64,000 bases of DNA, taken from NCBI GenBank assembly GCA_003971905.1, contig RSEE01000007.1:434001-498000 (forward strand), in the 5' to 3' direction. Source of the stretch: Moniliella sp. 'wahieum' (Eukaryota). The notes under the pieces are model-generated. The model had not been told where the DNA came from. It searched no databases and saw only the letters and a list, made by a program, of their open reading frames with translations. The first letter of the stretch is position 1, and each line of letters begins with the position of its first letter. Position numbers and translations under genes: made by a program. Positions 1 to 60,861 of the stretch are shown here, piece after piece.

Positions 1-708
1 TTGTTGGTCAAGAAGATCTGCGCACGGAGAAGTACTTACTGCGGGCAGTGTGCTGGAGTGCCCGGTGCTACCCAGATCCATTGGCCTGGTAAACCTGTAA
101 AGCTTAAAGCTTGTACACAAAGCGAACGCGTACTGCCCTCCAAGGCGCACGCTGCAATGGGGCACTGCGCAACGCACGCTCTGCCAGGAGGGCGCGAGGC
201 TGGATAGGTGTGACATGTGACAGGTGACATTTGACATGCGACACGCGACATGTGACGTGTGGACATCACTCGGCCCCTGGCTCAGAGCGCCCCCGTGCCC
301 CCGGCCATGCGCCAACATGGCTCAGGTCGGGGCAGCCGAACACAGCAAATCACATCAGCGCATCCTGCGCATCATGCATCGCCCATCACCCGCCACGCCT
401 CCGCCGCAGCATCATGCATCGGCGCATCGGCGGAGAATAAAATAAAACGCGCAATTTTTGTTTTTCCCCGAGACTCGCCTCGTTCGCCTGGGACGGCGCC
501 TGCCTGCCATTCTCAAATCCTCGTGTCTCTTGTCACCATGTCACCAACACTAGGGGACCGTAAATATGTAACTCCCCAACACTTGTACGTTAGAACAGCG
601 GCATTGCATGCGACGGCCACGTACTCCCAACCAGCCGATCCCGGTCGCACGCACCCGTGGAAGACAGAACGACGCCACCACCATACCTTCATCTCGTCTC
701 CATCTCAC

Positions 709-2963
709 ATGTCGATGCCAAGCGAAGACGCTGACACGCCTGTGCGCCCCCCTCCCTCTCGCACGGCGCCAAACGCGGAGGCCCGGACTCTGGCTCCCAT
801 CCTGGGCCCGGTCCCGGTCTCGGCTCCGGTTTCGGCTCCGGTTCCCGTTCCGAGTCTACCTCAACCTCTACCTCAGTCTCGGCAACTCCAGCTCGTCCCC
901 CTGCTTCTGCTTCTGCTTCCGCTTCCGGTGCCGCTCCCGCGTCTCCCACCGCTCTTCCTCCTGGGCCCGTCTCCCCTCAGCCAAAGACACACACCCACTC
1001 ACCCATTCGCCGTCTCCTCCGCGACACACATCCACCCTCTGCTCCTGCTTCTCGCGGTCGTCTGCCTTCTCTGGTTCAAGGATTTGGCTTTGCTGAACAT
1101 TATGGCACCCCTCCCCACCCCCGTGGGCGTAGTATCGAGAGGCTTTCTGGCGGACTCGGTACCTACACATTCTCTTCCACTCCAAACCGCTCTTCGCGTC
1201 CCTCTTCCCTCACTCGTCCTGCTCGTCGTGACGACGTGACGTCCAACCCAAGCCCGCGTACCAGCATTTCTGGAGCCTCCGGTGTGCCTGCCGGATACCT
1301 GGCCCCCTTACCTTCCGTTACGTCCCGGCCGAGCGGCACCGCCCACGATGGTCCATCCGACTCTCTGCCGCGTCTCCCTCCTTGTCCGCCCCCCCCACCC
1401 ATCCTAGGCATTTTTCCGCCGTTCATGTTTCCCTTTCGCCCGTTTACACGGGTAATGATGCTGAAGGTGCCCGCTACGGCCCCGTCCCCTCCTCAATTGG
1501 TCCCCAACGACGCATGACATACGCCCCAGGTTACGCCCCCGCCTACACCCCCCAATCTGCCTCCGCCAGTCGCGACTCACAGATGCATCGCTACACGCGC
1601 TCATCTTTGTCAGGCCCAACCCCAGATCGATGGCATACTTCCCGCATTCTTCTGCGTATCATGACCACCCCGTGGACTTTCCCTACCCTTCTCATCCGCG
1701 CCGCTTTCGGGATCACGACCCAACCCTTCGCGCCTCCCCTGCTGGCCTACCCTTGCCTGGTGGTGACGTTCCCCCCGGGCCTCTGATGCGATGGCAGGAT
1801 TCCGAGCCGCATATCTCACCGTTTCCGCAACAACATCATGCGGAGTCCTTGTCGTACCTGCCTTCTCCTCACCCTGGCTCTCTTATGCACGACCCTCCCG
1901 ACTCATCCAGGATTTACGCTTCGCCACATGAGCGCCTCGGATGGGCTAGCAGTTACCCAAATTTACCCTCGGGGCCATTCCCTCCCCAGCTGGCCCACCC
2001 CCGCCTCGACCGCCATCGCATGCTCAGCCAGTCACGTCAACTGCAGGGCCGCCACGACCGTTCAAGTGTACTTCCTGTGGTGCTGCATTTGCCCGGAACC
2101 ACGACTTGCGAAGGCACTGCCGTATCCACTTGAGCACCAAACCGTTTGCCTGCCCCGAGTGCCAAAAGCCATTTACCCGCAAAGACGCACTAAACCGCCA
2201 CATTCTCGTCAAAGTACGTTTTCGTTCATAGCTCTGTTTCTTGCGTTTGACTCTAACATTGGTTGTGTGATTTGTCAAGGGCTGCGCTGGGCGCAAGCGC
2301 CATCGCGAGTTTCGCGTTGACGTAGACTCGGGCCCGTCGTGCCAGTGCTGATATCTCGACGAGCATCCACGGTGAGGATGATACTGTCGATTCTGGGGAA
2401 GCTGGGGCTCTATCAAGGGAAGAGCTTCCCTATCAAGTCCGGGGCGGGACTGATTCTTTGCCAAAGGAGCCCTCTCATCTCGCTCTCCACCGACATAGCT
2501 GGGCCCCCGCCGCGATACCAGGCCCTCCAACCGAAAAGGCGACCCCCCAGGGGCACACTTACCTAGTGGGGTATACTTCGCCCCGACACTTGTCAGCTGC
2601 GCGCAATTCACTCCCTGCCGAGGCCCTAGCCAACACGCCGGACTACAGAACACGCCGTCCCGTCTCTGGCCTTTGCACCCCACAGAGTGGGGACTACTAC
2701 TCCTCGGCACGATTGGGCCACAACGAGGGGCCACCACCTCCACAACATGCTGCGTTTCCTCTGGTACCCCTTCATGCAAGGCCGGCTCGTATTCCTCCGC
2801 CCCCCCCGCGCCTGGATCGCCTGGATCGCCTGGATCGAACCAGCCTCGTGTGCCCCTGCACTCCTCAGATACACCCGAAGGGGCCCAAGACTCCGAGAAA
2901 TCCCGTCAAGACAAGCGGGCGTCCGTCGTCCATTTTGATGATCCCTGGTATCCACCCAAGTAA
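709..2963 (+). CDS. C2H2 zinc-finger transcription factor (two fingers, Pro/Ser-rich); frameshifted in assembly, one intron 2214-2279
   Basis: The frame at ~2055-2213 (not in the ORF track) reads RPFKCTSCGAAFARNHDLRRHCRIHLSTKPFACPECQKPFTRKDALNRHILVK. A GTACGT...CTAAC...AAG intron joins it to GCAGRKR, giving the conserved fungal LVKGC ending. Start and end are inferred from flanking ORF pieces. Confidence 0.8.
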
Positions 2964-4468
2964 CTCCCTCTCATGGTTTCTGCCACGTCGTCGTCGTCGT
3001 CGCCCTTGCTCCTCCTTACGTATCCGCTTAGAGCGCACTCTCACTCGAGATGGATGGTGCAATGGATCACTGCGACTCCAGCTACGCCACGTATATGCGC
3101 TTACGCTCTTCCTGTTCATTCTAACCACGCTCGTGTTGCGTCTCCCGCGAGCATCTCTTACCACTCTGTCACGTCCCATCGCATCTCTTCTCATATCATG
3201 TCTCCTTTTCCACGTACCCCGACTGACCACTAGCCTGTACTCAGGGCCCAGCCATCCATCATTCCTTTGGCCTTTCCTTCTCCGCATTTCAATAGTCGCC
3301 ACAGCTCGCCGATGAGAATTCAGGGAATATCTTCCTTTCCTGTATATGAGGGGTTTGTCCAGGATCATCGAGGCGTCACTTTCGAGAAAGAGTCTACTAT
3401 GCTGAGCGAGATATGGAATTGAAGAGAGGGTCGACCTAATTGATTAAGACCGAAAATGGATCATGCTCCTGTGGGAATTGATCTACCTTTCGCTCCACGA
3501 GCAATGTGTCGAGGAGGCGATGGTTTCAACTCGCCTGCGAGAGGGAGGCATTGCCAGTGAAGGGACGGCGATGCGGGAGGAGGGCACATGCCTTCTCACC
3601 AAAAGCGACATAACAGAGTCCGTCGGCAAAATATATCAGCGAGAGGAGCGTTGCAAGAGCAGAATAAAACGCTTGCGATGAGGAACCTCCTGCCACACAA
3701 CACTATACGGCCGCAGAAGGGCATTTCGTACGTGTTTTGCGACGGCTTCCTCGTGCACCACCTTCCGGTACGTAGCGGGTAACCCTAAGGCCTAAACCAG
3801 GATCAGGACTATACACGTGGGCCATACCTGGGAAATCTGAGCCTGGGCCATTCAATATTCACGGACTGGTGGAGGATATATATGGAACAGAAGTGTACGT
3901 GCCTGATGCTTGCCAAGATAAGATTCAGGCGTATTTCTCGAACATGGAACAGCGGACGTTGAACGATTGAAGTTCAGTGTTCGCTCGCATAAGCGTGAGT
4001 GCATGAGCGCATGGGCCCCTAGGCCCTAGGGCCCACGGACACGCGCTAGCAAGTGCTCCAGCTGTGGCTGTGCCGGGGCACTGCAGAGCACTGCCGAGCG
4101 CCAGCGCTGCCCCTGCCCCTGCCTGCCCCTGCCTGCCCCCGCCCCCGCCCCCGCGCAGCCGGCACCCTGGCCAGTGCACGCGCAATGCGCAAGGCCGGCA
4201 ATACCACTCAATATTCAGTCCCAGCCCAGCCAGCACCAGCCAGCACCAGCCAGCACCGGCCATCCTGCAGGCTGCCAGGCACACACCCTGCCTGCAGCCT
4301 GCAGCACCCCTGCAGCGCCGCAGCGCAGCACAAACATACTCCGCCGCCCTGCTCCGCCTGCTCCGCCACAGCCAGCACCCGCCGCCTCCTCGCCCCCCCG
4401 GCCCCTCCCTCCACCCCTCCGCCCGGCCAGCCCGCCATCCCGCCATCCCGCCATCCCTGCTCCCCCCC

Positions 4469-7400
4469 ATGGGTGCCGGCGCCCCATCCCCGAGCAGCGT
4501 CGGCCACCCGCGCCAGCTCATCTCCGCCGCCTTGGCCGGCGACGAGCCTGCCGTCCGCGCCGCGCTCGCTGCCGGCCGCTCCCCTGACACGCTCGTCGAT
4601 GGGCTCGCACCTCTCCATGCCGCTGCGGCCGCCGGATATGCGTCCATTGTCGCCCTCCTCCTCGCCCACCGTGCCACCGTCAGCCTGCCCCGCCCCCCCT
4701 GCGCGCCCCGTCGGCGTGCTCGGCGTCCACCTCCTCGTCCCCCGCTGCGGCCGATCCCCCGTTGCATTCTCGCCCCCTCACCGTGCCCGTCGGCGCGACC
4801 CCGCTCCACCTCGCCGTTGCCAACGGCCACACGGGCATCGTACACTTGCTAGTCCAGGCTGGTGCCAACATCGACGCCGCCGACGAGACCGGCGCCACCC
4901 CCCGCTCCCTAGCGAGCCCGGCCATGCTCTGTGCCTTGTCCAGCGGCTTGAGCGATCCGTTCTCCTTGAGCGATCCGTTCGACTTTTCCGACCCATCGCG
5001 GCGGCCCTCGCTCGCATCGACTCATGGCAGTCCCCCCGACAGTGGGCCTCCCTCGCCGAGCACCCGCCGCTACCGCTTGGTGCCCGCCCGCTCGTTTGAA
5101 CGCATTGCCGACGCGTGTCCTCTTCTGCCTCCTCCATGATGTCACGCCATCGCCGGAACAGCGGATCGGCAACGGTTACCCCATTTGGTACATCCGGCGG
5201 ATCAGGGCTCAGTCGCGTGGCAAAGATGCCCTCGCTGGCCAGCCTGCGCTCGCATCCTTCCAACCACACCACCGGAGCCCTGGCCTTGCCTGCTACGCCC
5301 CACGCCACCGAACTTGCGGTCCTCTTCCCCTTCCTGCCTTCACCCTCCATGCCCTCCTCCAGTGTCCCCACCGCCCCCACCCCAACTGCCTCTTCCCCTC
5401 GCGCCACCTTCAAATCTCATACCGATCGGCTCGCTTGGCCATCCTCCCGGTCGTGCACGACAGTGCTCTTTTGGCCGTGGGAGAGACAAGCCAGGGGCCA
5501 GCGGCGGTGGAGCTCGACTCGTTCCCGCCCGTCCCGCCTGCTCCCAGCCCACCCCGACCACAACCCCAAATACGCACAACTAGCTCGTCCCGCCCCCGAC
5601 GCCCGTCACTTCCCATCATTACCGAGCGAACATCGTGGAGGCGGGACACGCCTCCGCCTTTACCTCTGCAACGGAACACAGCCAGCGCGGCAGCCACATC
5701 GAATACACCAGATGCGCTAAGCAAGGATTCGACCGTTCCCGACAGCCCTACTCCAACCTCTTCTCGCCCCCTTTCGGCTTTATCGTCCGTCAGCGGCAGT
5801 GCCAGCAGCTCCGGGCCTGTTCCTCGACATCCTCTCCGAGACCACAAGGAGAACCTACACCATGGCAGTGGGGAAACGGACTTGCTATTCGGCCTGCCAG
5901 CGGGCAGTGGCAACTCCACTTCGTCCCAGCTCTGTTCCGGTTTTTTCCACTGCGAAGGAGACCATGACGGCATCGAATGACATGAGTGCGAAGGACGAAT
6001 GGGAAGAGTTGGCGCCCAACTCCTTTCCCTCTCCCCCCAGTCTTCATGTACATATCCTCCCCTCCCGTGCTTCTTTGGAAGGCGCGTCTTTGGGGTCACC
6101 TCGGTATCTAACCGACCCAGCACTCGCTTTGCCAAGGACAGGTCTGTCGACCTGCCGGCCTCAGGTCCGTTCAAGATGGGCCGCGCCTGTACTATGCCTT
6201 CCACCGGTACTACCACCAGCACCCACGCGAGCAACAGCCGCACCACCACGCCGCGCTCGCCCCGCCCCAAAATGAGGCACGGAAGTGCAGGATCGGTGCG
6301 AGGAGACACCTCGATGTTGTGTCCCACCTAACCCGCTGCCCGCAGCAGCTCAGGCCGCGGCCATCCTCGAGCGAGGTCAGGGCGCAGCAGAAGGCCGAGC
6401 GCCCAACATGGACGTCCAGCTGGACGATGGCACCACCCTCAGTCTTGCTCAGCAATTGGCAGCTCTTGGCCAGGCTTTGACCCGCGAGCGCGCCGCGTCC
6501 CAATCGTCTTGCGTCACCTTGTCCGCCCCCTCTTGTGCCCTCTCTCCCGCAGGCTTAGTGGGCACAGCCACCGCTTCTCTGTTGCTTCTGCGTCTGCCCC
6601 TACCCTTGCCCCTTCCCCTACCTCTACCCCTGTTCCTGCCTCGCCTAGCACTCGTCTCTCTTCGCCTCCCCCTCTCCTGGAATGGTGCGTCGTTGGGGAT
6701 CTCCCGCCACCCGGCTCCCTGGCACTCCTCCTCGTTCTGCTCAGCGCTCGCCTAAAGCAGGGAAGGAAGGGAGTGGATCCCGGGTACCGAGAGTGGCACC
6801 CTTGGATTTTTCCTCGTCTACCTCTTCCATCACCCACCAACGAAAGAAGGAAAGGCCGGTGGGTTGCGCGGCAATGGCGTATGCCAGTGACGTGCTACCC
6901 CCATTGTATTCCGATGGCCCCTTGCCGGGGCGAAAAGGTTCGGGCAAGTCGGAAGACGCGGCCCAGGAGGACGGGTTTAAGGAGGAGGTGGGGGAAGGAG
7001 AGCGCACGCCGCTCGCTTCGTCCTACCTTGCCTTGGCCCGTCCACTGCCGTCGGCAGCCGGCACGCTGGGACGTGAACGACGATCGTCTTTGGACCTTGG
7101 TACGGTTCCTGCTCCTGCTCCTGTCCCTGCCCTGGTGGGCCCGGGGTCTGAATCGCCTCCCGTGTCGCCGGTACAGCGTACGCGCGTTTCGTTGGGCCAG
7201 GAGCCGCGACAGGACCGTGCGCTGCGCCATGTCATGTCAACCAACAACCTCTACGCGCTCCCGCGGGCGGCGTTGGTGTCGGGCTTGGTGGAGCCAATGG
7301 GCGTACGCGGCTGGGACGTGACCCCGCCCAGCGTGTCCGAGCACGAGCACGATGCTAGTCCACGCGATTTGGCCCAGCGCAGGTCAAGGGAAGCGCTGCG

Positions 7401-7620
7401 CTTGCTCACCAAGCGTTCGGCGCCTGTCCTGTCCCGACGGTCCTTAGGTGCCCACCTGGACGATGCGCCGTTGGAAGAGGAAGAGGGTGGACTGATCGCC
7501 AGCTCGGGGTTGGACTCGGGCTCGGGGACCAAGAGCCCTACCCGCCGCCTGGCTGCCGGGCCGAGACGGCTCAAGTTTGACGCGGTGCGGCGCCTGTTTG
7601 ATAAGGTGGCAACGACCTGA
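4469..7620 (+). CDS. Ankyrin-repeat protein with long Ser/Pro-rich low-complexity C-terminus (frameshifted)
   Basis: Ankyrin consensus matches: DGLAPLHAAAAAGYASIVALLLAHRA (ORF 4064) and GATPLHLAVANGHTGIVHLLVQAGANIDAADETGATP (ORF 4762). Downstream ORF pieces continue to a stop at 7620. Confidence 0.7.
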
Positions 7621-7832
7621 TCTCGTTCCCTTGGTTGCTTACCATGCCGATGCGCGCGGGGCTTGCCCTACTCTTCTCCCCACCCCCCCTTACTGCGCCT
7701 ACCATGTGTTTCCGCCTTCCTCCATATACCAATGCACGTTGCTTCTTGTCTGGACGGGCAGTGTGGATGTCCATGTCCGCACTGCCCCCCCCCATCCACT
7801 ACCCACTGCAAACGAGTTAGATGAATTAGAGC

Positions 7833-7927
7833 CTAGCATGCCCATACTTGCGCTAAGCGGTCTGGTAGCCAAGTCTGCATCCGGGGCTTACCCGGCGCGA
7901 TGCCGAGGAAGAGCGGAGCAGGAGCAA

Positions 7928-7987
<60 letters not shown>

Positions 7988-9746
7988 AGCTGAAGCAGAA
8001 GCAAGCGCGGGGGCTGGGCCAGGCGAGACGTGGAACTCAAATCAGAAGCAGAACCAACGGTAGAGGAGGGGGGAGCCAACGTCGCACCCGAGACCAAAGT
8101 AGAAGCAGGAGCAATGTAGGAACGCAGGGAACGTGGCCCATCCCCCGATTTGGTCTCTTGCTTCGTGGGTTCAGGCCAGGAGAGGGGCGCCGGCTGCACG
8201 TTGGCCAAGTGGGGAGCCAAGAGATGGGCGAGGGGCGGGACGAGAAGGGTGAGGTGGTGCAGCGTGGGACAGGTGGCGGGGGCGGGGCGGGGGGAGGATG
8301 GGTCGTCCAAGGTGCGCGGAGGAGGGCGAGGGAGGTGAGCCAGTCGCGGACTTGGCGGGGTGGGGGAGAGGCGGCTCGATCGTCAGTTGGGATGGGACAG
8401 GGGTAAGGAAGAACCAAGGGTGAGGGTGTGGGCAAGGGCAGGAGACGGGGAGCAGTGCAGCGTGAGAGTCTGCAGGTGGGGGAGGGCAGCGATGAGACGG
8501 TGGGCAAAGGATGGGCGGAGAGAAGGGAGGGTGAGGTGGAGGTGCTGGACTTTGTGGAAGAGGGGGAGCGCGAGGAGGGTGCTAGCGTCGGTGGATTCCC
8601 AGTCGAGCGGAGCGGGGGGAGCAAGGGGAGCAGGTCCGGGACCGAGATCGATGCCGGTGCCAAAGCCAGTGCCAAAGCCCGTTCCGCCAGACGACGGAGC
8701 GACGACCTCAGTGACGAGCGAGCGGGGCCGCGGGTGAGCCGACTGGCCCAGACGAGCAAACACGCCTGCAGCGGCCAAGGCCCGGGCACTGTGCCCATCA
8801 AGGCACAGTTCTTCCACCCATGGAGTGGCGAGCAGGATCTGTTCCACATGGCGCGCGAGGGTGGTGTGGTCGAGCGCGGGAGGGGGCGATGGCGGTGGTG
8901 GTGATGGCGGCGGCGGGAGGTCGATGTGAGAGAGGGTGCGGAGCAGCAAGGTAAGCAGCCGGCGCCAGGTAGGCCAAAGGGCGTGCCAGGTGGATTGGTG
9001 GACGTGGGCGTGGACCCTGCCTGGCCAGACGGGTGGTGCATGGCGCGTCGGCGGAGGTAGTAGCGACGGAGGCAGTTGGATGCGCTGCACCAGCTCCCCC
9101 AGCGCAGGGTTGTATAGCACTACTGTTCGCCGTACCAGCTCCACCGCCTCGGCCGAGGGAAGACAAAGACAGCGATAGACCTTGCGCTGGAAATGGTGGA
9201 GGTGGGCGCGAGAGAGACACATCACTTTGCCCGGTTGGCGGCCCAGAAGCGGGCTGGCTACGTGGGAGAGAATCTGCAGTTGGATTTCGGCGGGAAAGAA
9301 GGAGAGGTCTTCAATCCCCGCCCCACCCTCTGCCGTGGACGGAGGAAGAGGAGCAAGGGGCGGCACCTTATTGGGAGGGGCGGCGGGCAAACCAGGTTCG
9401 CCATCCCAGGGCGGGCGCACCGACGAGCGCTGTGTTCAGCCGCTGCTCCAGGCTCTGCTCCCATCGCTGGGATGCAGCTGCAGCCGAGTGGTACGAGAGG
9501 ATGGAATACAGGGCAAACCAAGGTGTGGCAAGTGTGGCACAGGCCGACCGCACCAAGAACTGCGCCAGCAACGCCAAGAGCTGCGCCGTCAGCACAACTG
9601 GCAGCGCTGCTAACAGCACCGCTCCCGTTAGCGCCAAGAAATCGACCGCCTACTCGGTGGGATGCAGTGGCGGACGATGGGTTGGATGGCGGCGATGGCG
9701 ATGGCAATGGATGTAGCAGTGGCGATGGCGTGCGGGACAGGAGCAT
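7833..9746 (-). CDS. Putative F-box-like protein (frameshifted; boundaries uncertain)
   Basis: ORF 8383..9420 has LSFFPAEIQLQILSHV...LSRAHLHHFQRKVYRCLCL...LGELVQRIQL, a pattern typical of fungal F-box proteins, followed by LxLxL-type strands (VEELCLD, VQHLHLT, LQTLTLH). Confidence 0.45.
7915..7990. repeat. (CAGGAG)n hexamer microsatellite, about 12 copies; probably encodes (AP)n on the minus strand
   Basis: Directly visible: ggagcaggagcaagagcaggagcaggagcaggag... Confidence 0.9.
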
Positions 9747-10500
9747 GCAAGGTGTGGTGCCCAGGTTGCTCAGTGTTGCTGCGGTCGATAGCCAATCGCC
9801 CAAAGCCAGACATGGGGCAGATGGATGATCGATGATCGATGACAATCTCAATGATCTTTGCCGCTCCTGATTAATGATTAACGATTAGATCAGCGCTCAG
9901 CCACTCAGTACTCTGCTCGCCGCGGAGAGTGTGGCACATATCTGCGGGGTAAACATTACCCGGTGGACAATCACCTTTCTCTTCCTTCTGCCCGAAAACC
10001 TGCCCGATCTGATGCTACGAATCAGATCCGCTGTGTCCGAGTCACTGCTAGATCCAGCAGGCTCCAGCGCTAACGCTAATCGAGGCGGCATACGAGCACC
10101 GCATTTCGCATAGGTATTTGCACCATCTACGCCCAGCAACCCCACACAACGTACTCATCAGCCCACAAAGAAAAGTCCAATGCCGAAGGCTCAGCTGTTC
10201 CGTCCCCTCCCAAAAGTACAGCTGGCAGCCGGGATGATCGATGAGGGATGAAAAAACAAGGGGAAAGAAAGAGACCCAGCAGTGCGCAGATAAGGTGCAG
10301 AGGGGAAGGGACAAGGGCAGCAGGCCCGCACACCGCCCTGCGGCCCCGTCTGGTGTGGGAGACACAGAGGGCCTCAAGAGCGTGCGCGGGTGTCCGCGAC
10401 GCCAGAGCGAGTAAGACAATGTTTTGGGCGCGCGGGCCAAGAAAAGGGCCGAGAGAAGGCAAAGGGGTAGCCGACCTACCCAGCCCAGTACACACCACAA

Positions 10501-12879
10501 TTAAGCAGGTGCATAGGTCCGCCTGGTCCGTGGCAGACGTCCATCGTCGTCGGCTGGTTTCGGCGGCGGAGCAAAGCGGAATGGCGAGTCATTCTCCTCA
10601 TCGGCAAGGGCGTGAAGATGGGGCGGTGGCAGAACACGATGGCCATACCCATTCCCAGGGCCATGAGATCCCGATAGGGCAGCAGTCATGCCCAGTGGAG
10701 GCGAGCGCACTGCCGTAAGCGATCCCATTCCCAACCCGCCAAACGACCCGCCAGACCGCGAAGGCGCACGAGACGAAGGTCGCTCCTCTGTTTCGCCTCC
10801 GCGCGAGGGAGCACGGAAAAAGAGGGAATTGTTCGAAGGAGGGCGGAGATCCGAAGGACCAAGAAGATTGGAGAACAAGTCCCGACTGCCGGGACGGGGG
10901 GGAAGGTGCCCCCCATCCCTGCCGCACCTGCTGCCGACGCGGTGCCGGGCCGGCTGATAGACGAAAGCGGAGGCAAAATCGGCCGATCCGACTTGCCTCC
11001 CGGCGGAGAGTCGCGTGTGCCTGGACGTTCCCATGCGCCGGGTGGCCGGTCCGCCTGACCTCGTGTGCCCGGTCGGCTGGACGCCGTAGGGACAGCCCGA
11101 TCCGGCGGGGGGGCGGAGAAGGGAAGGGCAGGGAGGTCGCGGCCCTGACTCAGTGGGAGAGCTGACGAGGCCGCGTCGCGGCCAGAAACGCCATTGCTGC
11201 CGGGCGGAGCAAGCGCCAATCCAAAGCCAGCAGCGGTAGGCGGACGGGAATTCCGCCATTCCGCCCCCGACGCGGGGAAGATTTCCCCACTGGTGGCAGC
11301 CATTACAGCCGAGGCCGAGGTGCTGGGACGGGGATAGTCCGCCCCATTAGTAGGAGGCCGCGCATACGGGTCTGTCCGGTACTCACCCCGGTACTCGTCG
11401 GGCGCGCCAACATTCATGCGATACTCGGATGTCGGCGGCCGGCGGTACTCGCCGTAACCATAGGACCCAAATCCATTTGCCGGGGGGTGGTAAGGGTCAG
11501 TGGAGCGAGAACCAGGCCGCCACATGTCGAAGAAGGTGTTTCCCGTCGCCGAGGGAGGGCGGCCGAACCAGGAGAAATCCATTCCGCCCAAGTGGCCTGG
11601 GTCGTACCCGCCTCCTGGTAATGACGAGGCAGCCAGCGAGCGCGGAGCCAAGGGATCGCTGCCACCTGGTGCAGTGCCATCGTGGGCGACAGGTGTACCC
11701 AGGCTGTCTCCTGAAGCAGAATGAGGTGCGGGAGGGATAGTGTGGGTGCCAGGAGCAACGCCAGGCACGTTCCCATTTGTATGGGAGGCGGTACTGACCC
11801 GACGTTTCTTTCGCGCATGACCTGGGTTGCCACGTCCCGCTCCCGATGTGCGAGGGGCGCGAGCGCGGCCAATTACCTGGTTGGCCGCCAACTGGGCCTG
11901 CGCGGCTTTAGCGGCCAGCTGGGCATGGAGAGTGGCAAGCTCCGAAAGCATTGCTTCATTCTTTTGTGGCTCTGCCGAGTGCACCGTATCGGCATGTTGG
12001 CGTAAATTGTCAAGGCGGGAAAATGATTTGCCGCAATGGCAGGTGAAGGGCTTAGCGCCGTTGTGTTTCCGCTGGTGACGCGCCAATGCTCACTGCGGGT
12101 AAAGACCATGTTGCAGTCGCCATAGCCCGTACAGCGGAACATGGTCACATGGCTCATCTTCTTGCCGTCTTCGCGTTCGGTGGTGCCATTGGCCTTGTTC
12201 TCGCCAGTCGAAGATAGGCCTGGCGGGCTAGGTTGGATGGATGGATCAGGTTTTGAAACGGTACGACGGCGACGGCGAGGCACAGAGGTGGCTGGAGTAG
12301 AAGCCGTCATATCTGCCGAAGCCGAGGCAGAGGGATGCATTCGGACCGCCTCGGCGAGGGGACGGTCATCTTCGTCGTCGCCATCTTCGTCCTTGGGAAA
12401 ATAACGCTTGGCCGGCATCGAAACGGGTTCCAGGGGGGGAGCAGCTTGGACAGCGGGGGAGAAGACGGAGGAGTCGTAAGGCGCAGCAAGCGGAGGTGGG
12501 GGTTGGGGTGGGGGATGACCAAAGGCACTTGGATCAGGAGGGAGGTAGGCGGGAGGAAGACCGGGAGCGGGATGAGCGGCGGCGACCCAAGACGCGTTTG
12601 GGGGGCAGCAACCGGGGCAGCGACGGGGGGGCGCCAGGCCGGATGTGGCCCAGGAACGGAAGGGGAGGCGTAGATAACGGAGGGCGAGGCATAGGCACCC
12701 GGCGGGAAGTAGGGGGCTGCACCATAGTATGCACTGGCGTCGGGGGCGCCAGGAAGCGAGCCGGCTTGGGCGCCGGCCACAACGTAAGAGTGAGGGTTGG
12801 CATGGCCATGTGGGTGCTGGCTGGGCAGCGCAACAGGTGGGGCAGCCTGTTGGTGAGCCGGCGGTGCGGACGCGTACAT
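10501..12879 (-). CDS. USV1: C2H2 zinc-finger transcription factor, Usv1/Rgm1 (Nsf1) family (frameshifted)
   Basis: [19 protein letters not shown][1-nt shift at ~12085][36 protein letters not shown]. The [20 protein letters not shown] finger is characteristic of this family. Confidence 0.8.
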
Positions 12880-13302
12880 GGGCGTCTGGACGTCGGGCGC
12901 AGCGGTAACAGGAGCAATGGCAGCGGCGAGCGGCAGTAGGAAGGTGGCGACGCGGCTGGAGCGACGAATACAGGGCGGAAGCTGTGGACGATGGCAAAGG
13001 AAACGGGACAGGGAGGCGGGCGCAAAGAGAACGGAGCAGCTGCTGGGAGCGCCTGTACCTGAGCTGGACGCGTCGACGTCCGAGGTACGAGGTCCGAGAA
13101 CAAGGGCGGGGGTGGTGGTGGTGAGTGCGAGGTAGGCGGTGCGAGGACTGGGACCGGAGGTAGCGGAGCGGACCCAGCCACGCTTTCCACACGCCGCGAA
13201 GCACTTGCGGTTACCGGGCTTACCGCCTAGCGCTTTCGCAGGTGCGGCCGAGGATTGGCCTGAACGGTGACTAAACGGTTCTCCCGCCGGTCACTGGCTC
13301 AC

Positions 13303-46109: not shown

Positions 46110-46853
46110 TGCATCCGCAGCTGTGGGGGTGGTAGGGTCGATGGGGGTGGTGAAGCGGCCGCTCGTCCAGCTCGTCAACGGCTCCTGGCTGTCGCTGTGG
46201 GTGCCACAGGGTTGACGTATTTTCCGGGTGGCGGAACTGCGCTTTTTGAAATGTCACAGCCTTAACAGGCCTGAGGCGCTGAGCCTCCATGGCTTGCACC
46301 TTCAAGCTTCAAGCTTCAAGCTTCACGTCAAATTGACCTCACTGAGAGTCTGCCGACCAGCTTGTGCGCTTGAGCGCCTCACACGCATCTCCTGCTCTGC
46401 GAGGATGGTCGCATGGACGACGCCTGCTGCTACACCACCGCCACCATTCCCGGTGCTAACCTTGAAGCCTCAACCAAAGCGTTGCGTGCACTCTTAGACC
46501 TTACTGCTTCTCACCGTCACACGCATCGTGCATCATGCATCATGCATCACACCAGTGGCATCGCCTTCAACCAATCAGCTTGCTCCCACCAACAACCGAC
46601 GTTGGACGTCGGATCCAGGAGCTGGTGCGGTGGGCATAGATGGCATGATGCATGACTGTAGCAGCTGTCAAAGCGGGACGCAGCCAAGCTCAAGCTGCAC
46701 AAGCTGTGGTGATTTGGGGGCTGGCTGGGACCGCGGATTACATAACCCAGCCTTCACGTCAGCTTCGCAACCGCCACGTTGTCAGGTCCGGGGAGTCGCA
46801 GTCCTCCATCTGGAACTGCCCCATCACCTTTGCCTACACCCTCTGCCTGCACG

Positions 46854-47863: not shown

Positions 47864-48158
47864 GAGAGGCGGTAGGCGCCATATTACAATTGGTACAATC
47901 AAAAATACTTCAGTCTGTCGAATGAAGAGTGGCTCTGGCTAGCTGGGCGAGTTGTAATAGTACATTCAATGTGGGTACTGGCAGAGCTTATCAGATCCAT
48001 TGGGTAGTGGTCCGGCATCGCCCTAAGGCTTTTTCCGTGGTGCTCGCGCATTATAGTAGCTTTTGTCTGTTTGCGGTTCCTTGACCCTGTTTGGACGCAG
48101 AGTCCCCTTTCGGCGGAAGTTACCCAGCGAATCCTCACCTGATGAGACCTGGAGTCCA

Positions 48159-48410
48159 GATGGTCCTCGAGGGTGATGCAATCACACTAGTGGTGGTGGT
48201 GGTGGTGGTGGTGGTGGTGGTGGCGGCGGCGGTCTAAGCCAACCAGCAACGGCTGCAGAGGAACATCAAGCAGCGAGTCTCGCCACCAGGGGCTAAGCTG
48301 CGAAACAAGGAAAAACAGGAGAGAAAAACAGCGGAACTCCCAAGCCTGAGGAGGGACTGAAGGGACATTGACCAAAGCACGAGCCACCTGATGGCTCAAC
48401 ATTACCTTCT
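48159..48410. repeat. Dispersed diverged repeat, copy A (contains a (GTG)n tract)
   Basis: 24-nt identity GATGGTCCTCGAGGGTGATGCAAT with 56735-56758, and continuing patchy similarity. Confidence 0.8.
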
Positions 48411-49345
48411 CTCAATCAATCGATGGGATCAAGGAAACTCTTCTTTTAGTCGCCTAGTTGTTTCCCTCTCCCACTTCCTGTCTTTAACCCTCCAGCTCTC
48501 CAGTTTCCAGCGTTTCACCCCTCCAACATCCAGTCCCCTATAATAGTTGTTTGAATCCTAATTGATCATGATCATCCGATAGTGCAGTCCTACTCTGTCC
48601 CACCCCCTCACCTTTCCTATATGTCCCACTCTAATCCAGTTCCTGCTTCAGCTCCACAATCCCCCACAGTCCAGTTTCCATTCCCGTGCCGGCATAATAG
48701 TCCAGTTTGCCTCTCTCTTCCAATCAAGTGTACGAGCATCGTCCATTGACGTGTTGCCACTTACTGCCCACAAAAGCCGTGGATGTTAACCCCCCAGCGT
48801 GGGTCCGGCCACGAGAGGGGCTTGATCGCCTGCCGTTTTCTACGCTCTTCAACGACCTAATTGAACAGTTCTGGAACGGGCCCGGCATACATCGACCATC
48901 AGCCTACTGTCGTACATGCCAATAGTGTCGCCACATCTGAGGTCTGGTATTTAAGTCTCCGTCTGAGACCCCGCCAACCGATTTTTGGTGCGGGGCAAAC
49001 CAGACCTGGATGAGCTGGACGCCTGAGCCTGAAGCCAAGGGGGTGGCCTTCACCGGGAAGCCCCTCACATGTCACAGTAGTCACTGCGTAGCAACGATAG
49101 CAAGGGCTGACACATACTGTCATGCATGAGATCGATGAGATCTAAGAAGATCAATCACGTGATGAGTGAGCCCCACTCCGGGCCGAGTAACCCTATTGTA
49201 GGAATGTAGCCCGGTGCCTGTTGTCTTCCAGCTACTTGCCGCAGCAACCCTGCCGTGGCTATGCCCGGTATCCAATGCGCTTGCTCTGGGCCGCGAGTGT
49301 GCCGCCCGGAAGGCCTCTAGCCAGCCCACCGACTCATTATTCGAC

Positions 49346-49977: not shown

Positions 49978-50681
49978 AAGAATGACGCACCCTCTTGTTG
50001 TTGTTGTTGTTGTCTCTTGCACAATTTTCCCTCCCTGAACGCCTCGGCCCTCAATACTGAAGCCTCGGCGTTGTGTCCCTCTTCATCAGGGCTACCCATA
50101 TACATACTCCCCTCCCTCCCAAAATGAGCCGTCTCAGCGCAGGACCGTGGCCAAGGTTCTGTTTGCTGTTTGTGCTCGAAGCAGTCCATGCTATTTTCGG
50201 TGCTCGCCGACGGCAGCTGGAGCTGCCACAGGCATGGGTGCGTTGTTAACCTATGCAAATGCCATGACATGAACGGCCTAGCAAACACAATGCACAGATG
50301 GGACGCCGATGATCCATGATCGATGAACGCGCTGAACCTGCTGAGCCGTAGGCCTCAGAGACCCATCAGACTGAGGTTCAGACCTTGAACGTCTTGAACG
50401 TCGATGGTGTTGAACCGTTGCACGTTGCACTTTGAATGGTTGAACGTTCAGTTCAGTGGAGCGTTAAACGTTAAACCCTGGTAGACACAATGGGATGACG
50501 TAAGTAATTGAACCGCATGGTGTCCCAGGAACCCAACGTGGCCGCCATGCAGCTGTGGCGCTGCTGCGGCCCGACCGGCTACAATCTTGCGTCGACATCC
50601 CCAACGTTGGGAGCGTCGTTGTCGCCATCGCTAGCATCGCCCCTGCCTAACCTATACTAGTCCACAGCATCCATCGTCAGC

Positions 50682-55320: not shown

Positions 55321-56734
55321 TGGGGTGGAGGTGATGGTGGAGAGACGAGGAAAGATCTGATGTCTGATGCGATTGCGGCGAACGCTCGCGTAGCCATTAG
55401 TCGGTCGGATCGGCGGTGCTTTTGTGCCTTGCGGTAGCCGAGCCAGCCAACCATATGCCGGCACTGCGCCCGCGTCCACCAGGACAGCCCTGGCACGCCT
55501 CCTTGAAGCTGATCGGCGTTGTACGTCCACTCGGCCCAAACGCCTGTACGAGCTTCGCTCCGCATGCTGCCTGTGTAGAACCCCCTGCACACGGATGCAT
55601 TGAGGCGTAAGTACGTAAATGGGGCCCAAAGCCTGAGGCCTCACCGGCCTCACTGGTCACGGGTCACCGGTCACCTGAGGGCGTTCGCTGGGGCCCCGGC
55701 CGCAATGGCAATGATGCGTGGTGCGCATGATGTAGGATGGGTGACTAGTTGCTAGCGAGCGCTGGCTGAGTATTGAATTGAATACTGTCCCAGTGCCTGT
55801 TGGCGTGGGCAAACGCGCCAACGCCTGCTGTAAGCGCAAGCGCTAAGCCTTGCTCAGGCGCCCAGGCGCTCAGGCGCTCAGGGCTAACGCCAGGGCCCAC
55901 CTTGCCTGCCCCGCATCCTGCAGCTGATAAAACAACGGGCGCTGTGCCATTCGCTCCTTCGGCTAGGGTAGGATCGATAAGGGGGTGCGAGGTGCCAGGA
56001 GCTAACCATGGGAGCCACAACGCACTGGCACACATGAGTATTTCGTACTTGCGATTAGTTTATCCGCCGAGAGCGCCTCAGCGCCTCAGCCCTCAGCGGT
56101 TGAGCAGGGCTCAAGTTGAGCTCAGCGGGGTTCGGGCGCTCAGGCGCTCAGGCCTCAGGCTCACCGGTGAGCTCACCCGCTCACATGCTCTCAGGCCTGA
56201 GAGAAGCCACGTCAAAACCAGGATATATATCCCCCGTCCACTCTTGCAAAGGCGTTGTCTGCTCGATGATCGACAATCATCGAAATGATCATCGGTCATC
56301 GATCGTCATGCATCATGCATCAACCATCTAATCATTGCAGACTAGTGAGTAATGATTCGCATGCATGGCTACTGCTTGCCACCGCCATTAGCGCTAAGGC
56401 TTAGCCCTCCGGAGGAGCGTGGCAGAGTGCGGCAGAGCGTGGCTTGCCATCGCGCCAGTGTCATCTGCGAGTATATGCACTGCCGAGATGCTCGCACCGC
56501 TCGCAACTTACACCCAAGCGCCCAAAAGCTCTATCAAGTTCAAGGCCAAACCGCCCTTCCAATTTGAAACGAACCACTTCCCTCCATGGTAAACATGAAG
56601 TCTCGCCAAGCCTTTGCTTACATTTGACCCAGGTATCCTTAGCCAGTCGCTAATTTCCCTTCCCTGCTCCTGCTGTGATGCATGATGGCTGACGAGATCT
56701 TATTTGCGTCCTGCGGCCTGAGGGCCTGAGGCCT

Positions 56735-56970
56735 GATGGTCCTCGAGGGTGATGCAATAATGGCACTAGTGGTGGTGGAGACAAGTCACTAGTCAGCCAG
56801 CAACGCCTCAAGAGGGACATTAAGCAGCCAGACGCCGCCAGCGACTATCAGGTTGTCGAACAAGGAAAACAGAAACGAGAACGCATCGGAACTCCGATTA
56901 GGCCGAAGAAGAGACAGAGCGGACGCTTTGGCGCCAAAAAAACGAGCCACCCGCGGTGGCTCGACAAAGG
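56735..56970. repeat. Dispersed diverged repeat, copy B
   Basis: Same orientation as 48159-48410. Shared blocks: CACTAGTGGTGGTGG, CCAGCAACG, AACAAGGAAAA, CGGAACTCC, ACGAGCCACC...TGGCTC. Confidence 0.8.
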
Positions 56971-59900
56971 CGTGTTACGGTTATTCTTTCTCTCTTGTCG
57001 AGATAGTATCAGATCTATCGCATGGGGGAGGCCCTGGCAACGCCGAACTTGCTTCTGTAGTCCAGCGGTATAATGTATCTTGGAAAGCCAATCAGTGCTA
57101 CACAACGTATGGTTTTCCCGTCATCGGATCCTGGTCGAACCGAGTAGGTTTCTACTAAGAGACGAGGGAAGAGAGATGAGAGCCGTCAAATCGTAACTAA
57201 GTGTAAGGGCGGAGAGAGGAGTTTTGCAGAGAGAATTAAAAAGGTTAACCCGCAATCTGGTTGTCTTTCAAGGGCACTGACGCTTCCCAGTCGGGTACAG
57301 CAGATGAGGGTTCTATACCAAAAAACGGGTTAAGCGAAAATGGTACTAAGCGTTTTCGTCTCGATGATCCCATGCGACCATGGCCAGCCGCGGAGAGGAT
57401 ATGACATCATGGATGCGTTGTCTCGTAGATTCTCTCTCAGATCTCACTTTATAGTCTAACGGGACTGACGTGTGTGCTTAGGCGAGAGTTCTATGCCAAA
57501 ACTGCGAGACTCTATGTCCGGAGGTAGTAAAACCACGGAATGACCACCTATAAGTATGATTCCCCCCTTCCACCCGCTCAACACAGTAGAGTTCAAAAAG
57601 CCCTGTCTTATAACAGAGGATTTCTCCAGCTTTCTACTTCCCTGATCGTGAGGGCTTCCCTCATAAGGTCATTTGGCCTCTCATAGGGCACCCCGCTTTC
57701 AGAGAGCCTTTTGCACCCAAACACATGCGTTTCAAACCGACTCGCCTCAAGTCTTCTCTTCATTCACTGCATGGGCCCGGAGCATGCCCATAGACTGTGT
57801 GCTGATGAGCGCTTATATGAGGCCTGTGAGGGTCTGCGGGCTGAAGCCATCGTCCAACATCCTGATCCGATAACGCTCTTGTCGGCGTTCCGTTTGATTC
57901 ACGTCTCTTTCTTTTCTAGATTCTTTAAGGCATCTGACGCGCCTCATCGCATCCCTTACCCCCGTAGGGGAAGGAGTCATATTCACTCTTAGAGGGGAAC
58001 CATGATGCGTGGTGATTGGAGGTTGAGTGAGAGCTATATTACTCTTATATCGGGTGTGAAAGGAGGTGAAGTTGAAGGAAGCGGGAAAATTCTGCAAGAA
58101 AACGCCTGGCAGGGACGGACGCCCTCAGGTCTCATGAGCCGTTCTTCCCCCTACTCAGTGTCACGGGCTGCGGCGGACTCGAGATGGTCCGACCCAAGCT
58201 AAGGCCCGCCTGCTCTGCACATGCCCAGTGGAGTGCGCCCCCAAGCCGAACCAATTATGTCGATGGTTGGTTGCACCATGTACCGTGGCCCGAGTAGCCA
58301 TGCGTACGCGCGACAGTAGTCGCCTCCCGCCCAAGTCTAAGTTGCTGTGGCCGAAATAAGGCCACCAAGTATTCAGTATCTTTCCGACGTCCGTCGCCCC
58401 GTCACCACTTATTTTTTCCTTTCTCGGTCGCGCCTATGGCAATCAACCCCTCTTTTGACGTGTCTTCTTTCTACATCCCTCCCTCTTGTGTCTGTTTCCA
58501 CCTTTGATTTAGCCTGTACCCTGGTCGGTGGGGATCCTTTTCCCCACCCTCCATTCTCGTCCTTTCCAGTCTATGATCCTGTCCGACTCCTGCCCGTTTT
58601 CCATGCAGCCAATTTGATCCAGTACAGGCAGACTCCTCTTGCTAGCTTCCGACTTCTCCTCCGGCTTCGTCCTCCAGCAATCCGCCAGTCCAGTCGCGCG
58701 AGCCCTCCTTTGGCCGGGTCGATTTCCAGTATCCATCTAGTCTCAGTTGAGGCAGCATTTTTGACCGCCCCGCCTCCTCCTCCTCGTCCCTAAGTCCCGG
58801 AGGCTTCAGACACGTTACTACGGCCCAATCCGGTGCAGACGCAGCCTTGCCACACGTGCAGTCGCCCCACCAAAGGCTTCTCCTCGTCCCCAGCTCCGCT
58901 CGGATTCACCAACCAGCCCAACAAGCCCGAAACTACCGTGAGTCGTCCTTCTGTCTCCTAAAGGATTGTACCCCAAGAACCTGGGTGATTCCCCTGGCGG
59001 GGCCCGCCCGTGACACTCAGGACGACACGCCAGTTGTATGCCACTAAAGCGGGGAACAATAAAAGATACTTAGTTATTGAGCGCGAGGAGAAAATCTTAC
59101 TAAAGAGTCTATATTCATCCATCATGATTGAAGATGTGTTTCATCTTATAGTGGGTCATATGTCTGTCACCCTCATAGGTGGCTTAATCCAACGCTCGCG
59201 TTACTACTAATCCAGAAGTTAGGAAGCAAAAAATAGCTTCTTTATTGTCCCAGCCTTAAGGTCTGTCGATGATATGGTTTTAGGAGGGTGGTGCATGAGA
59301 GCACCGCGACGCCTTTGGAACGCCGGAAGAAGGAGCTGCTTTGGCTGCTGGAACAAGCAGAATGGGACAAGAACGCTAAGTACCAGGGACGCACTCAAGA
59401 GCCTTTTTCCCCCTCTGGTTTTGACGACGCAGCGAGGATACTATGGCACCAAGACAGGGGGCAAGGTGCTTGGGCACTGGAAGGATTTGGCTACTGACTC
59501 TCAATGGAAATGGTTCCTCCGTCGCTCGGATGTCTACCACGTTCATCCGTGTCCACACGCGCTACCTCGGGTATGGGAACGGATAATGGCGGGCACCAGA
59601 GGGTCCTGATATCCTCTGGCGATCCCCTAGTTCCTTGACAGGAGTGTAATAGCGACCAAGCAATAACACACGCAAGATGAACGGGTCGGTTTAGGCATAG
59701 CGTTTCCCTATCCCAGCCTTAACCTTTGTCAATGATATGGATTACGTTGTGGCAATTTACCACTGCAGTGTGCACTGTTATTGTGGATCCCAATATTCGG
59801 TACGCGTACCTAAGCGGAGGCCAAAAGGCTGGCCAGGGTGGGCGAGAGTCAGTGCGACAAAAACTGAATGGACGTTTATCGATTGTTCCCTCCTCCTGTG

Positions 59901-60861
59901 TGTCTTATTTGCTCTGAGATCTGATGCAAAAAGCTGGTTTACTATTGAATAATAGTAATTACCAGCAAAAAGCAACATGTAACAAGGGGCTTGCTGGGTT
60001 TGTGAGAAGTTGGAGTCTTTGACTTCCACAGCCAGCGCAGACAGTATAACATTTTATAGACATATCGTTTTGGTCTGGATTAACGGACCTGAGAGTATAG
60101 CCCGTGCAGCAGAGTAAGAAAGGTGGAGACGGGATCCGACACATGTGGCAAAAGGGATATTGAACTGTATGAGACATACACAAAACAGCAATGGGGGAAC
60201 CAACATATAAAACAGGTTTTTGGAGCATATATATGCCCCCGTATACGGAAATAAAGCTTCTGGGGAGGAAAGCTGGGGTGAAGCTTGAAGCTTGACTTGA
60301 AGCTTGAAGCTTGAAGCCACAACTGTGATGGTAAAACGCGGCGTGTGGCGGTAACCGGTAAGTACTAAGTGAAGATTGAAGAGGCCTCATGCCGAAGAGG
60401 CCTCAGGCATGAGGCCTGTGTGCATGTGAAGATTGAAGAAACAGGTTAAAAAAAGGACAAATACTGTGGCATGTGGGGATATTGGCACAGAGGTTCATAA
60501 CTAAGTACTAATCATTTAATGAGTAGGTTCATGAGATCTGAGATGAGTACGTGATGAGTCTCCATCAGGTCCATGCGGGGCCCTCCCGTGTCACATTCCG
60601 AGCCGTTCAGTTCTTCTCCCCGCACAACCATTGGCATTGACCCCCGTTGCGCGACCGATAGAGCGTCCCCACCGCTTCCGTGAGAGCGCGTGAGCATACG
60701 AGCCCCCGGTACCGGTGGCTGAGCCCGGAGACCGGAGAACCCCTGACGCCCTGAGCCTTGACGCCCTGTTATATAGATACTTTTATAGTAGTACTGTCGT
60801 TATCTCTGTCTCGTTTGCGATCCGTCCACCACTCGCCCAACTTTTCTTTACCAACTTCATC

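Follow-up and report, generated by a model that had tools for sequence, protein, structure and literature searches.

Hairpins made by the RAG recombinase are flush in geometry, and Transib transposons duplicate 5 bp of their target. Elements of the hAT, Transib and Muta1 kinds and RAG itself all hairpin the flanking DNA, and the hairpin is opened by the host (according to excerpts of PMC5499845). With Artemis, coding-end hairpins open chiefly at +2, leaving 4-nt overhangs (excerpts of PMC2175297). In the palindromes left by Ac/Ds the centre is formed by the complement of whichever base adjoins the element (PMC5873905). Duplications of 7 bp are known from basidiomycetes in hAT7 and Kyakuja (excerpts of PMC12730594), and Transib has been reported missing from fungi (PMC5751038). 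The CMCT elements described to date duplicate 2-5 bp; RAG/Transib-type (CMCT) elements are recognised by a DDE transposase carrying C(2)C and H(3-4)H motifs and by CA..TG ends. In Ustilago maydis, '10-bp repeats' were reportedly proposed as transposon footprints by Laurie et al. in 2012; the other smut-genomics literature searched holds no mention of them. The repeats reported here have a 7-bp unit and follow a rule of copying from the flank. The U. maydis repeats are a possible precedent; our literature searches found no other prior description of such arrays.

The window, that is the whole stretch of 64 kb analysed here from Moniliella sp. 'wahieum', a fungus of the smut lineage (Ustilaginomycotina; contig RSEE01000007.1), contains 79 links in which a T-N-A trimer is followed by a 4-bp palindrome and the same T-N-A, while 2.5 were expected from 100 trinucleotide-preserving shuffles in 1-kb blocks. 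These links group into 55 arrays, which bears out the recurring T[GC]A-palindrome arrays of the original prediction. Excess was seen for TGA (35 observed vs 1.0), TCA (33 vs 1.1) and TAA (11 vs 0.2), TTA giving 0 vs 0.2, and among all 64 trimers it is confined to T-N-A trimers and to those that read the same arrays in a shifted phase. The claimed preference for palindromic cores was likewise confirmed, as non-palindromic 4-nt cores are only about 2-fold up against the shuffles (TGA 29 vs 14, TCA 26 vs 17). For even palindromes of 0, 2, 4, 6 and 8 nt between identical T-N-A trimers the counts were 48, 15, 79, 0 and 2 vs 43, 11.5, 2.5, 0.6 and 0.3; thus the 2- and 6-nt palindromes expected from 5- and 9-bp duplications are not enriched at T-N-A. 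Odd palindromes at T-N-A are mildly raised (3 nt, 14 vs 5.1; 5 nt, 5 vs 1.2), and 4-nt palindromes at A-N-T, C-N-G and G-N-C centres number 1, 8 and 6 vs 1.4, 6.3 and 7.2. The middle base of T-N-A is retained between copies, with 79 same-spacer links vs 16 mixed ones. There is no fixed consensus among the arrays beyond T-N-A.

All 13 cores (of 16 possible) that had been listed occur, and ATAT has to be added, so that 14 are present and only AATT and TATA are missing. The listed positions were each recovered at or within a few bases, except that CATG near 30365 proved to be a partial unit, the nearest full link lying at 30390 and being mixed; ACGT at 15185, GTAC at 14910 and GCGC at 37691 are of the mixed TGA..TCA kind. 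The control consisted of 602 kb of mostly bacterial DNA from 80 unrelated loci returned by a metagenome scan with a 12-row uricase alignment; it contains 0.018 links/kb vs 1.23 in the window; since the best uricase locus has 52% identity and is short, these loci serve solely as a negative control. No look-alike stretches of positions 1-12000 were found in the other genomes compared. The 7-base insertions in front of genes, copied partly back to front from neighbouring bases, are real.

In 48/55 arrays the core consists of the flanking dinucleotide and its reverse complement, where 10,000 flank permutations gave a mean of 8.0 and a maximum of 18. The left flank alone accounts for 20 arrays, the right flank alone for 18, both for 10 and neither for 7. 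A motif-blind scan of the 30.8 kb of non-coding DNA returned as its strongest class, at T-N-A, a 5-nt repeat plus two inverted bases (22 vs 0.3; three of these 22 are trivial one-base-each matches). Writing the target as yz-TNA-ab, with a prime for the complement, the unit is better read as this 7-bp site than as 'TGA + free palindrome'. Indeed, rarer relatives of +8, +9, +11, +12 and +13 bp carry an intact 7-bp duplication centred on T-N-A, the bases between the two 7-mers being short and inverted. With one base in between, it is the base of a flush hairpin in 10/10 links (9 loci), a class that remains ambiguous as 8 of the 10 also fit a hAT-type offset hairpin with 9-bp duplication; with two bases in between, 4/5 fit a flush hairpin. 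In the one-base (+8) class the first base of the 7-mer equals the last at 6/9 loci vs 26% (p=0.013), in line with a microhomology prediction that was made post hoc and is weakened by the hairpin ambiguity. The +11 form was seen at 3 loci, +12 and +13 at 1 each, a plain +7 duplication of a non-dyad site at 3 loci, and the mixed +7 form with the predicted flank in 5 links vs 0.18. Overall, 0-6 bases separate the two copies of such intact 7-mers.

Even palindromes with arms of at least 5 nt have T-N-A exactly 2 nt off centre in 12/49 cases in non-coding DNA (background 4.9%), including the three longest, and in 0/40 cases in genes. The main class, the variants and the long palindromes all have an even centre 2 nt from T-N-A, at the end of the duplication. 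Furthermore, C or G occupies position +-4 in 84/110 cases vs a background of 58% (p=6e-5), which resembles a transposase target preference. Among the 15 multi-link arrays 6 have two or more cores, where pure re-targeting predicts 4.1 (1-8); three of these fit both flanks exactly, two fit the right flank only, and one has an unexplained middle core.

Other readings of the unit were rejected. A 5-bp duplication plus 2 P bases would be a simpler account of the main class, but the variants duplicate intact 7-mers, and cores are templated from the left as often as from the right. Under a 3-bp, Harbinger-like duplication the bases outside it could not be templated. Slippage of a micro- or minisatellite would give a period-7 match of 7 nt, whereas it is 5 nt in most arrays; the smallest event is not a full-unit duplication but 5 direct plus 2 inverted bases anchored on T-N-A, and slippage cannot make arrays with several cores.

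Location classes rest on an approximate map of 19 genes (Pfam, codon scan and translations). Genes contain 0 arrays at 1176 T-N-A sites, in agreement with the original prediction, and the four convergent gaps 0 at 140. Within 1.5 kb upstream of a start there are 40 at 858, beyond 1.5 kb 10 at 365, and in a stretch of uncertain gene content 5 at 141. Density differs between upstream and convergent DNA (p=0.004), the comparison of upstream with distal DNA giving p=0.15. The predicted promoter-side bias is thus confirmed, with the qualification that arrays reach up to 3 kb from the start, and their absence from convergent gaps holds except for one +8 relative at 62598. Of 17 genes whose upstream gap could be tested, 15 have an array in it, the two without being the uricase gene and the C2H2 gene (28.4-30.1 kb). 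The sites are as follows, with positions in the window on the forward strand.

96-545, upstream of the first gene: TAA/AGCT link (98), TGA/CATG array with decayed units (209-266) and +8 variant (531-545).
3784-4219, upstream of an ankyrin gene: three single links, 3786 GGCC, 3852 ATAT and 4208 ATAT.
9824-10246, between two minus-strand genes: four arrays, 9826 TCGA x2, 9868 TTAA, 9890 GCGC and 10235 TCGA.
13308-16032, divergent gap 12880-19843, within its left 3 kb (its right 3.5 kb has no arrays): densest cluster, 15 same-spacer arrays and variants.
13708-13730: +8 variant, non-dyad 7-mer x3 with one inverted base between copies.
14064-14112: long even palindrome of 49 bp centred 2 nt from TCA, with a perfect arm of 13 nt followed by a 13-nt duplication; it is a long P-arm event.
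14382-14402: two-core array, TCGA (left flank) then CCGG (right flank).
14555-14569: +8 variant, intact duplication of a non-dyad 7-mer.
14693-14738: +11 variant (both 2-nt P arms kept) leading into a three-core array, CCGG, TCGA and TTAA x2.
16017-16032: +9 variant, non-dyad 7-mer intact in duplicate, 2 P bases.
21094-21358, upstream of thioredoxin: two-core array 21094-21128 (TGCA x3 from the left flank, CCGG from the right) and link 21347.
23229-23269, upstream of a bZIP gene: CCGG link and one +8 variant.
25408-26592, gene content uncertain: five arrays, +11 variant (25781-25798) and mixed link (26388).
30388-30401: imperfect mixed link TAA/CATG/TCA.
33906-34028, XRN2/RSN1 divergent gap: two-core array (TGCA, CGCG x2) and two TCGA links.
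37683-38474, upstream of a LisH gene: repeated +13 variant (37683-37715), +11 (38271), plain +7 (38432) and CCGG link (38463).
46300-46657, UPF2/OST3 divergent gap: arrays AGCT x3, TGCA x2 and TGCA.
49063-49147, upstream of RPL26: CATG link and two mixed links.
50315-50476, upstream of an AhpC/TSA gene: TCGA and ACGT links, +9 variant (50384-50399) and mixed link (50441).
55356-56797, upstream of ROT1: dense cluster of six same-spacer arrays and mixed links, with variants plain +7 (55356, 56084), +8 (55868, 56076, 56138, 56717) and +12 (56159-56177).
57435-57448, distal part of the gap: isolated GATC link.
59913-60543, upstream of the gene at 60862: six arrays including the two-core array 60350-60370 (CCGG from the left flank, GTAC from the right).
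62598-62612, in a convergent gap: +8 variant, the sole exception to the promoter-side rule.

We consider it probable that the arrays consist of excision footprints that have accumulated from a cut-and-paste DNA transposon, one that duplicates 7 bp of its target and whose flanks form flush (RAG/Transib-type) hairpins. No transposase or element lies within the window, and the enzyme is therefore one that we infer. The element would insert at yz-TNA-ab sites in open promoter DNA, preferably at TGA or TCA with C or G just outside the 7-bp site, and duplicate all 7 bases. Upon excision each flank would be sealed into a flush hairpin, as by RAG and Transib. A host nuclease would then open the hairpins, mostly 2 nt past the tip as judged from the geometry of the scars, so that the left duplex would end in yzTNA with the 4-nt overhang a b b' a' and the right one would start with TNAab and carry z' y' y z. 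Retention of one overhang during end joining would yield TNA, a 4-bp palindrome and TNA, a net gain of 7 bp with the core set by one flank, which is the geometry of the main class; with both overhangs kept the product would be +11, and other hairpin openings would give +8, +9, +12, +13 and the mixed TGA..TCA form. Because the scar regenerates the target, repeat hits would lengthen an array, and the opposite flank could supply it with a further core. Second hits exceed the number expected from independent hits 3-4-fold (15 vs 4-5), so that hot spots or a degree of slippage have to be invoked in addition. In genes such scars would be frameshifts and be purged. Of the three explanations offered originally, a palindrome-generating repair process in open DNA came closest and is supported; it is now made specific as a transposon-type footprint. 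On this reading the arrays originated as by-products of mutation, some of which may since have turned regulatory; so far as the evidence reaches, they do not amount to a new regulatory code.

V(D)J coding joints (RAG1/2) and Transib share with the arrays the flush hairpin, even palindrome, +2 opening and 4-nt overhang (excerpts of PMC2175297 and PMC5499845), but the arrays show a 7-bp duplication centred on T-N-A and are germ-line and genome-wide. Ac/Ds scars in plants, S. cerevisiae and C. albicans resemble them in short deletions with P bases, microhomology and few dominant products, and in yeast have palindrome arms of up to 20 nt (PMC5873905). Kyakuja, a KDZ group of Agaricomycetes, has the same duplication length, CA..TG ends and a basidiomycete host, but is described as having no TIRs (excerpts of PMC12730594). 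EnSpm/CACTA and the CMCT elements of fungi (EnSpm, ESTA, Plavaka) occur in basidiomycetes and share catalytic motifs with Transib and RAG1; the 7 bp deduced here lie outside the length range described for CMCT. For EnSpm/CACTA and CMCT elements, our literature search found no published footprint spectrum. A milder reading, which we hold to be a serious possibility at somewhat less than even chances, is that the element belongs to an EnSpm/CMC-type lineage whose 7-bp duplication would be without precedent, and that the scars are a genome-wide record of flush-hairpin excision.

Among 50 long ORFs of the window and a further 146 shorter pieces (133 of the 184 listed non-coding frames and 13 others), none matched a transposase family in Pfam, and the Atlas matches of a repeated ORF piece (59223-59606) were all under 0.9. 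A search for a TIR element between two identical NN-TNA-NN 7-mers gave nothing convincing within the 64 kb. Two aligned pairs of dispersed repeats had no clean 7-nt indel, and the only dispersed repeat touching an array (48152/56728) aligns ambiguously; the 80 metagenome loci included no close relative for allele comparison. Counted against the footprint reading are the 7/55 arrays that fit neither flank. The approximately 80 readable events within 30.8 kb of non-coding DNA are a very high number, given that the group has been described as poor in repeats, and genuine footprints tend to vary more than those seen here.

If transposon footprints are the right reading, a large share of promoter sequence was written by transposon traffic leaving almost no transposon. 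Duplication length (7 bp), target (T-N-A), hairpin type (flush) and opening (+2) would be fixed by the scars from sequence alone, and it would become possible to test directly how a fungal CMC- or Kyakuja-type element is excised and how fungi open hairpins and join ends. The scars would also represent a non-slippage route to tandem repeats and a source of new palindromic promoter motifs.

The same chemistry might operate free of any element, through a domesticated transposase, a RAG-like host nuclease or abortive transposase attack on promoter T-N-A targets, with a 7-nt staggered cut and hairpinned ends producing scars in one step. We regard this as rather unlikely. It shares all geometric evidence with transposon footprints and explains why the scars are so dense and so stereotyped and why 64 kb contain no element, but we know of no chemistry that in a single step yields a full 7-bp duplication together with hairpins at both ends. 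Also unlikely is a RAG-like hairpin nuclease, perhaps a domesticated one, that acts independently of any element and cuts T-N-A in open promoter DNA again and again; such a standing, promoter-directed mutator would seed palindromic motifs and tandem repeats at >2 sites/kb of non-coding DNA.

Template switching during replication or repair synthesis, followed by slippage and with no dedicated nuclease, makes both direct and inverted copies, and the roughly 2-fold rise of non-palindromic 7-nt spacings and the over-representation of multi-unit arrays are in line with it. Yet neither of its variants, quasi-palindrome switching and synthesis-dependent microhomology joining, explains why the units are anchored on T-N-A and have their centre of symmetry always 2 nt from it, why A-N-T, C-N-G and G-N-C lack them, or how non-dyad sites come to have intact 7-bp duplications. 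A fold-back primer of 2 nt is implausible, and we regard the explanation as unlikely.

Very improbable are footprints of hAT type with offset hairpins, from hAT7 or the like, or heavily trimmed ones of a 9-bp-duplicating Mutator-like element. The hAT7 elements of rust fungi do duplicate 7 bp (excerpts of PMC12730594), and offset hairpins suit the ambiguous +8 links mentioned above and, as the classical two-base scar, 2/45 period-7 pairs. Against this, the main class of 79 links is even-centred and lacks a centre on the complement of the adjacent base, and the +9 class is even-centred in 4/5 cases vs offset in 1/5.

A lattice of selected binding sites for a factor that reads TGA, or a cruciform mark, the other two explanations offered originally, would suit the promoter-side location and the known fungal motifs inside some units (bZIP half-sites, the MluI box). 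We give these hardly any credence as the cause of the arrays. A lattice predicts neither the cores copied from arbitrary flanks (48/55) nor the kept middle base nor the +8 to +13 variants, as spacing ranges from 7 to 13 on the same anchor. As for a hairpin or cruciform, folding is weak: 4/5 typical arrays fold no better than shuffles or within about 1 sd of them, none of the five folds strongly (0 to -6.5 kcal/mol), and only the 49-bp palindrome 14064-14112 is stable. Moreover, promoter bias has also been reported for the hAT-type element TcBuster in yeast (PMC10512250).

An assembly or sequencing artefact can be practically discounted, since arrays are absent from 33 kb of genes with none of the 1176 genic T-N-A sites affected and long ORFs intact, and point decay is visible within the arrays.

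Recurrent arrays of T-N-A trimers around a 4-bp palindrome, as claimed in the original prediction, are a real feature of the sequence: 79 links (a T-N-A, a palindromic core and the same T-N-A again) were found versus 2.5 expected. All array and footprint results are based on this one 64-kb window. TGA-flanked cores occurred 35 times (1.0 expected), TCA-flanked cores 33 times (1.1 expected) and TAA-flanked cores 11 times (0.2 expected), while no TTA-flanked core was present in the window. Among palindromes between T-N-A copies only the length of 4 nt was enriched, not 2 nt (15 versus 11.5 expected) or 6 nt (0 versus 0.6), and the enrichment of 4-nt palindromes was restricted to T-N-A surroundings. 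The links are grouped in 55 arrays: 40 consist of one link, 8 of two, 5 of three and 2 of four. Link density is 1.23 per kb, compared to 0.018 in 80 unrelated loci. The predicted variety of cores was borne out, although 14 rather than 13 of the 16 possible palindromes are used. Another 16 links have differing trimers, 12 of them being perfect 10-bp palindromes. C or G lies directly outside the 7-mer target at 84 of 110 positions (58% background), and the middle base of the target is G or C in 46 of 55 arrays. All nine arrays with A or T in the middle are TAA arrays:

98, + strand, TAA array
3786, + strand, TAA array
14384, + strand, TAA array
15689, + strand, TAA array
25776, + strand, TAA array
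25794, + strand, TAA array
50465, + strand, TAA array
60352, + strand, TAA array
60502, + strand, TAA array

Non-coding TAA and TTA are present at 243:228. The bias may be due to chance, or may be tied to gene direction or intron signals.

The window is fungal (G+C 57%) and carries about 19 mostly intron-poor genes with approximate boundaries, including genes for XRN2, RSN1, UPF2, uricase, OST3, RPL26, ROT1, thioredoxin, AhpC/TSA, bZIP, C2H2, LisH and ankyrin proteins. Uricase is 59–61% identical to its counterparts in Tilletiaria, Thecaphora and Pseudozyma flocculosa and 83% identical to protein P0001, with which it forms its own long branch among Ustilaginomycotina in a 36-row single-gene tree that holds no supported named sister of the pair. 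Several + strand open frames without Pfam family (26600–28400) face the C2H2 gene.

Both the sequence geometry and the location of the arrays can be observed directly. As predicted, arrays are missing from genes (0 of 1176 T-N-A sites, on the approximate gene map) and from convergent gaps (0/140), and they are found in 15 of 17 testable upstream gaps. They occupy 40 of 858 T-N-A sites within 1.5 kb upstream, 10 of 365 distal sites and 5 of 141 in an unclear stretch. Such a promoter bias would be expected from open-chromatin targeting together with loss of frameshifts; a promoter preference is also stated for TcBuster in yeast (excerpt of PMC10512250). Within 1.5 kb the uricase promoter (19400–19840) lacks a main-class array, its sole item being an imperfect 11-bp-spaced duplication at 19629. 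Three long non-coding blocks (15900–19300, 47860–48860, 56800–59800; G+C 46–55%) are nearly array-free and adjoin array-dense DNA; they may represent more recent insertions or chromatin in a closed state. Within the LisH gene a long TCA-rich hexamer repeat coding for Gln/Ala (40204–40627) contains no palindrome-cored link.

The cores are copies of flanking bases. For a target site yz-TNA-ab the first core should read z'y'yz or the last abb'a' (prime, complement), and this holds for 48 of 55 arrays (left only 20, right only 18, both 10, neither 7), versus a mean of 8.0 and a maximum of 18 in 10,000 trials with permuted flanks. The smallest event therefore comprises 5 direct and 2 inverted bases instead of a slip by 7 bases. 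When the 30.8 kb of non-coding DNA were scanned without regard to motif, this class appeared with T-N-A 22 times versus 0.3 expected.

We consider it probable that the arrays are transposon excision footprints, arising from a 7-bp T-N-A-centred duplication with flush flank hairpins. We infer the transposon, the hairpins and the participating host enzymes. Both copies of yzTNAab would form a flush hairpin opened 2 nt past the tip, leaving duplexes that stop precisely at T-N-A and carry palindromic overhangs of 4 nt; on RAG hairpins, Artemis mainly generates this product (excerpt of PMC2175297). One retained overhang would yield the unit of the original prediction, two would yield +11, and since the joint restores the target, renewed hits would be possible. 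Two or three different cores occur in 6 of 15 multi-link arrays (4.1, range 1–8, predicted by simulation of pure re-targeting), a mixture beyond the reach of slippage. Arrays 14384, 21096 and 60352 combine a left core from the left flank with a right core from the right flank. There are 15 multi-link arrays, 3–4 times the 4–5 that independent hits would give; hot spots or additional slippage must therefore be invoked.

If both flanks of a 7-bp duplication are hairpinned, rarer joints should retain two intact 7-mers separated by inverted bases, and this is what the rarer joints show. One base separates the 7-mers (+8) in 10 links at 9 loci, in all ten the flush-hairpin base, and two bases (+9) in five cases, four of which fit. 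As most of these sites are not self-complementary, the match is not a symmetry effect. Four bases lie between the 7-mers at three loci, five at one and six at one; plain duplication of non-dyad sites occurred at three loci, and 5 links (0.18 expected) have a mixed TGA..TCA form with the predicted flank after it. Among non-coding even palindromes with arms of at least 5, T-N-A lies exactly 2 nt from the centre in 12 of 49, including the three longest (4.9% background), compared to 1, 6 and 1 at offsets 0, 1 and 3 and to 0 of 40 even palindromes in genes at 2 nt. Three results count against this geometry: eight of the ten +8 links also fit a 9-bp duplication with an offset hairpin of the hAT type, 2 of 45 period-7 pairs match the classical hAT scar, and between copies of T-N-A odd palindromes are 3–4-fold up. 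An offset hairpin cannot make the main class, since it leaves an extra central base (excerpt of PMC5873905).

The scars resemble RAG/Transib coding-end repair in the way they work and by hairpin geometry do not belong to hAT/hAT7. The 7-bp duplication we propose also sets them apart from the CMCT transposon lineages described so far, for which an excerpt of PMC12730594 gives 2–5 bp; there, 7-bp duplications are known from Kyakuja and hAT7 in basidiomycetes. In a search of literature that was mostly open-access, neither arrays of this kind nor a footprint grammar on the scale of a genome had been described. The window contributes a tested promoter-side bias, a count of two-core arrays, and a spectrum of variants in which even centres were tested against offset ones.

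The window contains neither a transposase nor an element with TIRs, and no allele pair was seen among its dispersed repeat copies. An excerpt of PMC5751038 describes Ustilaginomycotina as poor in repeats and states that fungi lack Transib, which makes the scar density surprising and keeps two alternatives alive. Scars made by an element-free nuclease, also in line with the missing transposase and TIR element, are unlikely; units made by template switching are slightly more doubtful. The original prediction is supported in its mutational-scar reading but not in the other two: a structural mark is at odds with weak folding in five typical arrays (0 to −6.5 kcal/mol; z −1.2 to +1.1 in four, −3.1 in one), the only stable fold among the arrays folded being the 49-bp palindrome at 14064, and a binding lattice predicts neither flank copying nor a spacing that ranges from 7 to 13 around the same anchor. 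Some arrays may later have gained a regulatory role.

A dispersed repeat without protein family (48152–48340 and 56728–56895, 72–88% identical) begins at an array in the 56.7-kb copy; at that place the 48152 copy is diverged over a similar length. A second one (22861–22941 and 59321–59397, 73%) lies inside a 128-codon open frame without family and is surrounded by a 33-bp direct repeat (59248–59280 and 59711–59743, 463 bp apart); frame and direct repeat are possibly a decayed mobile element.
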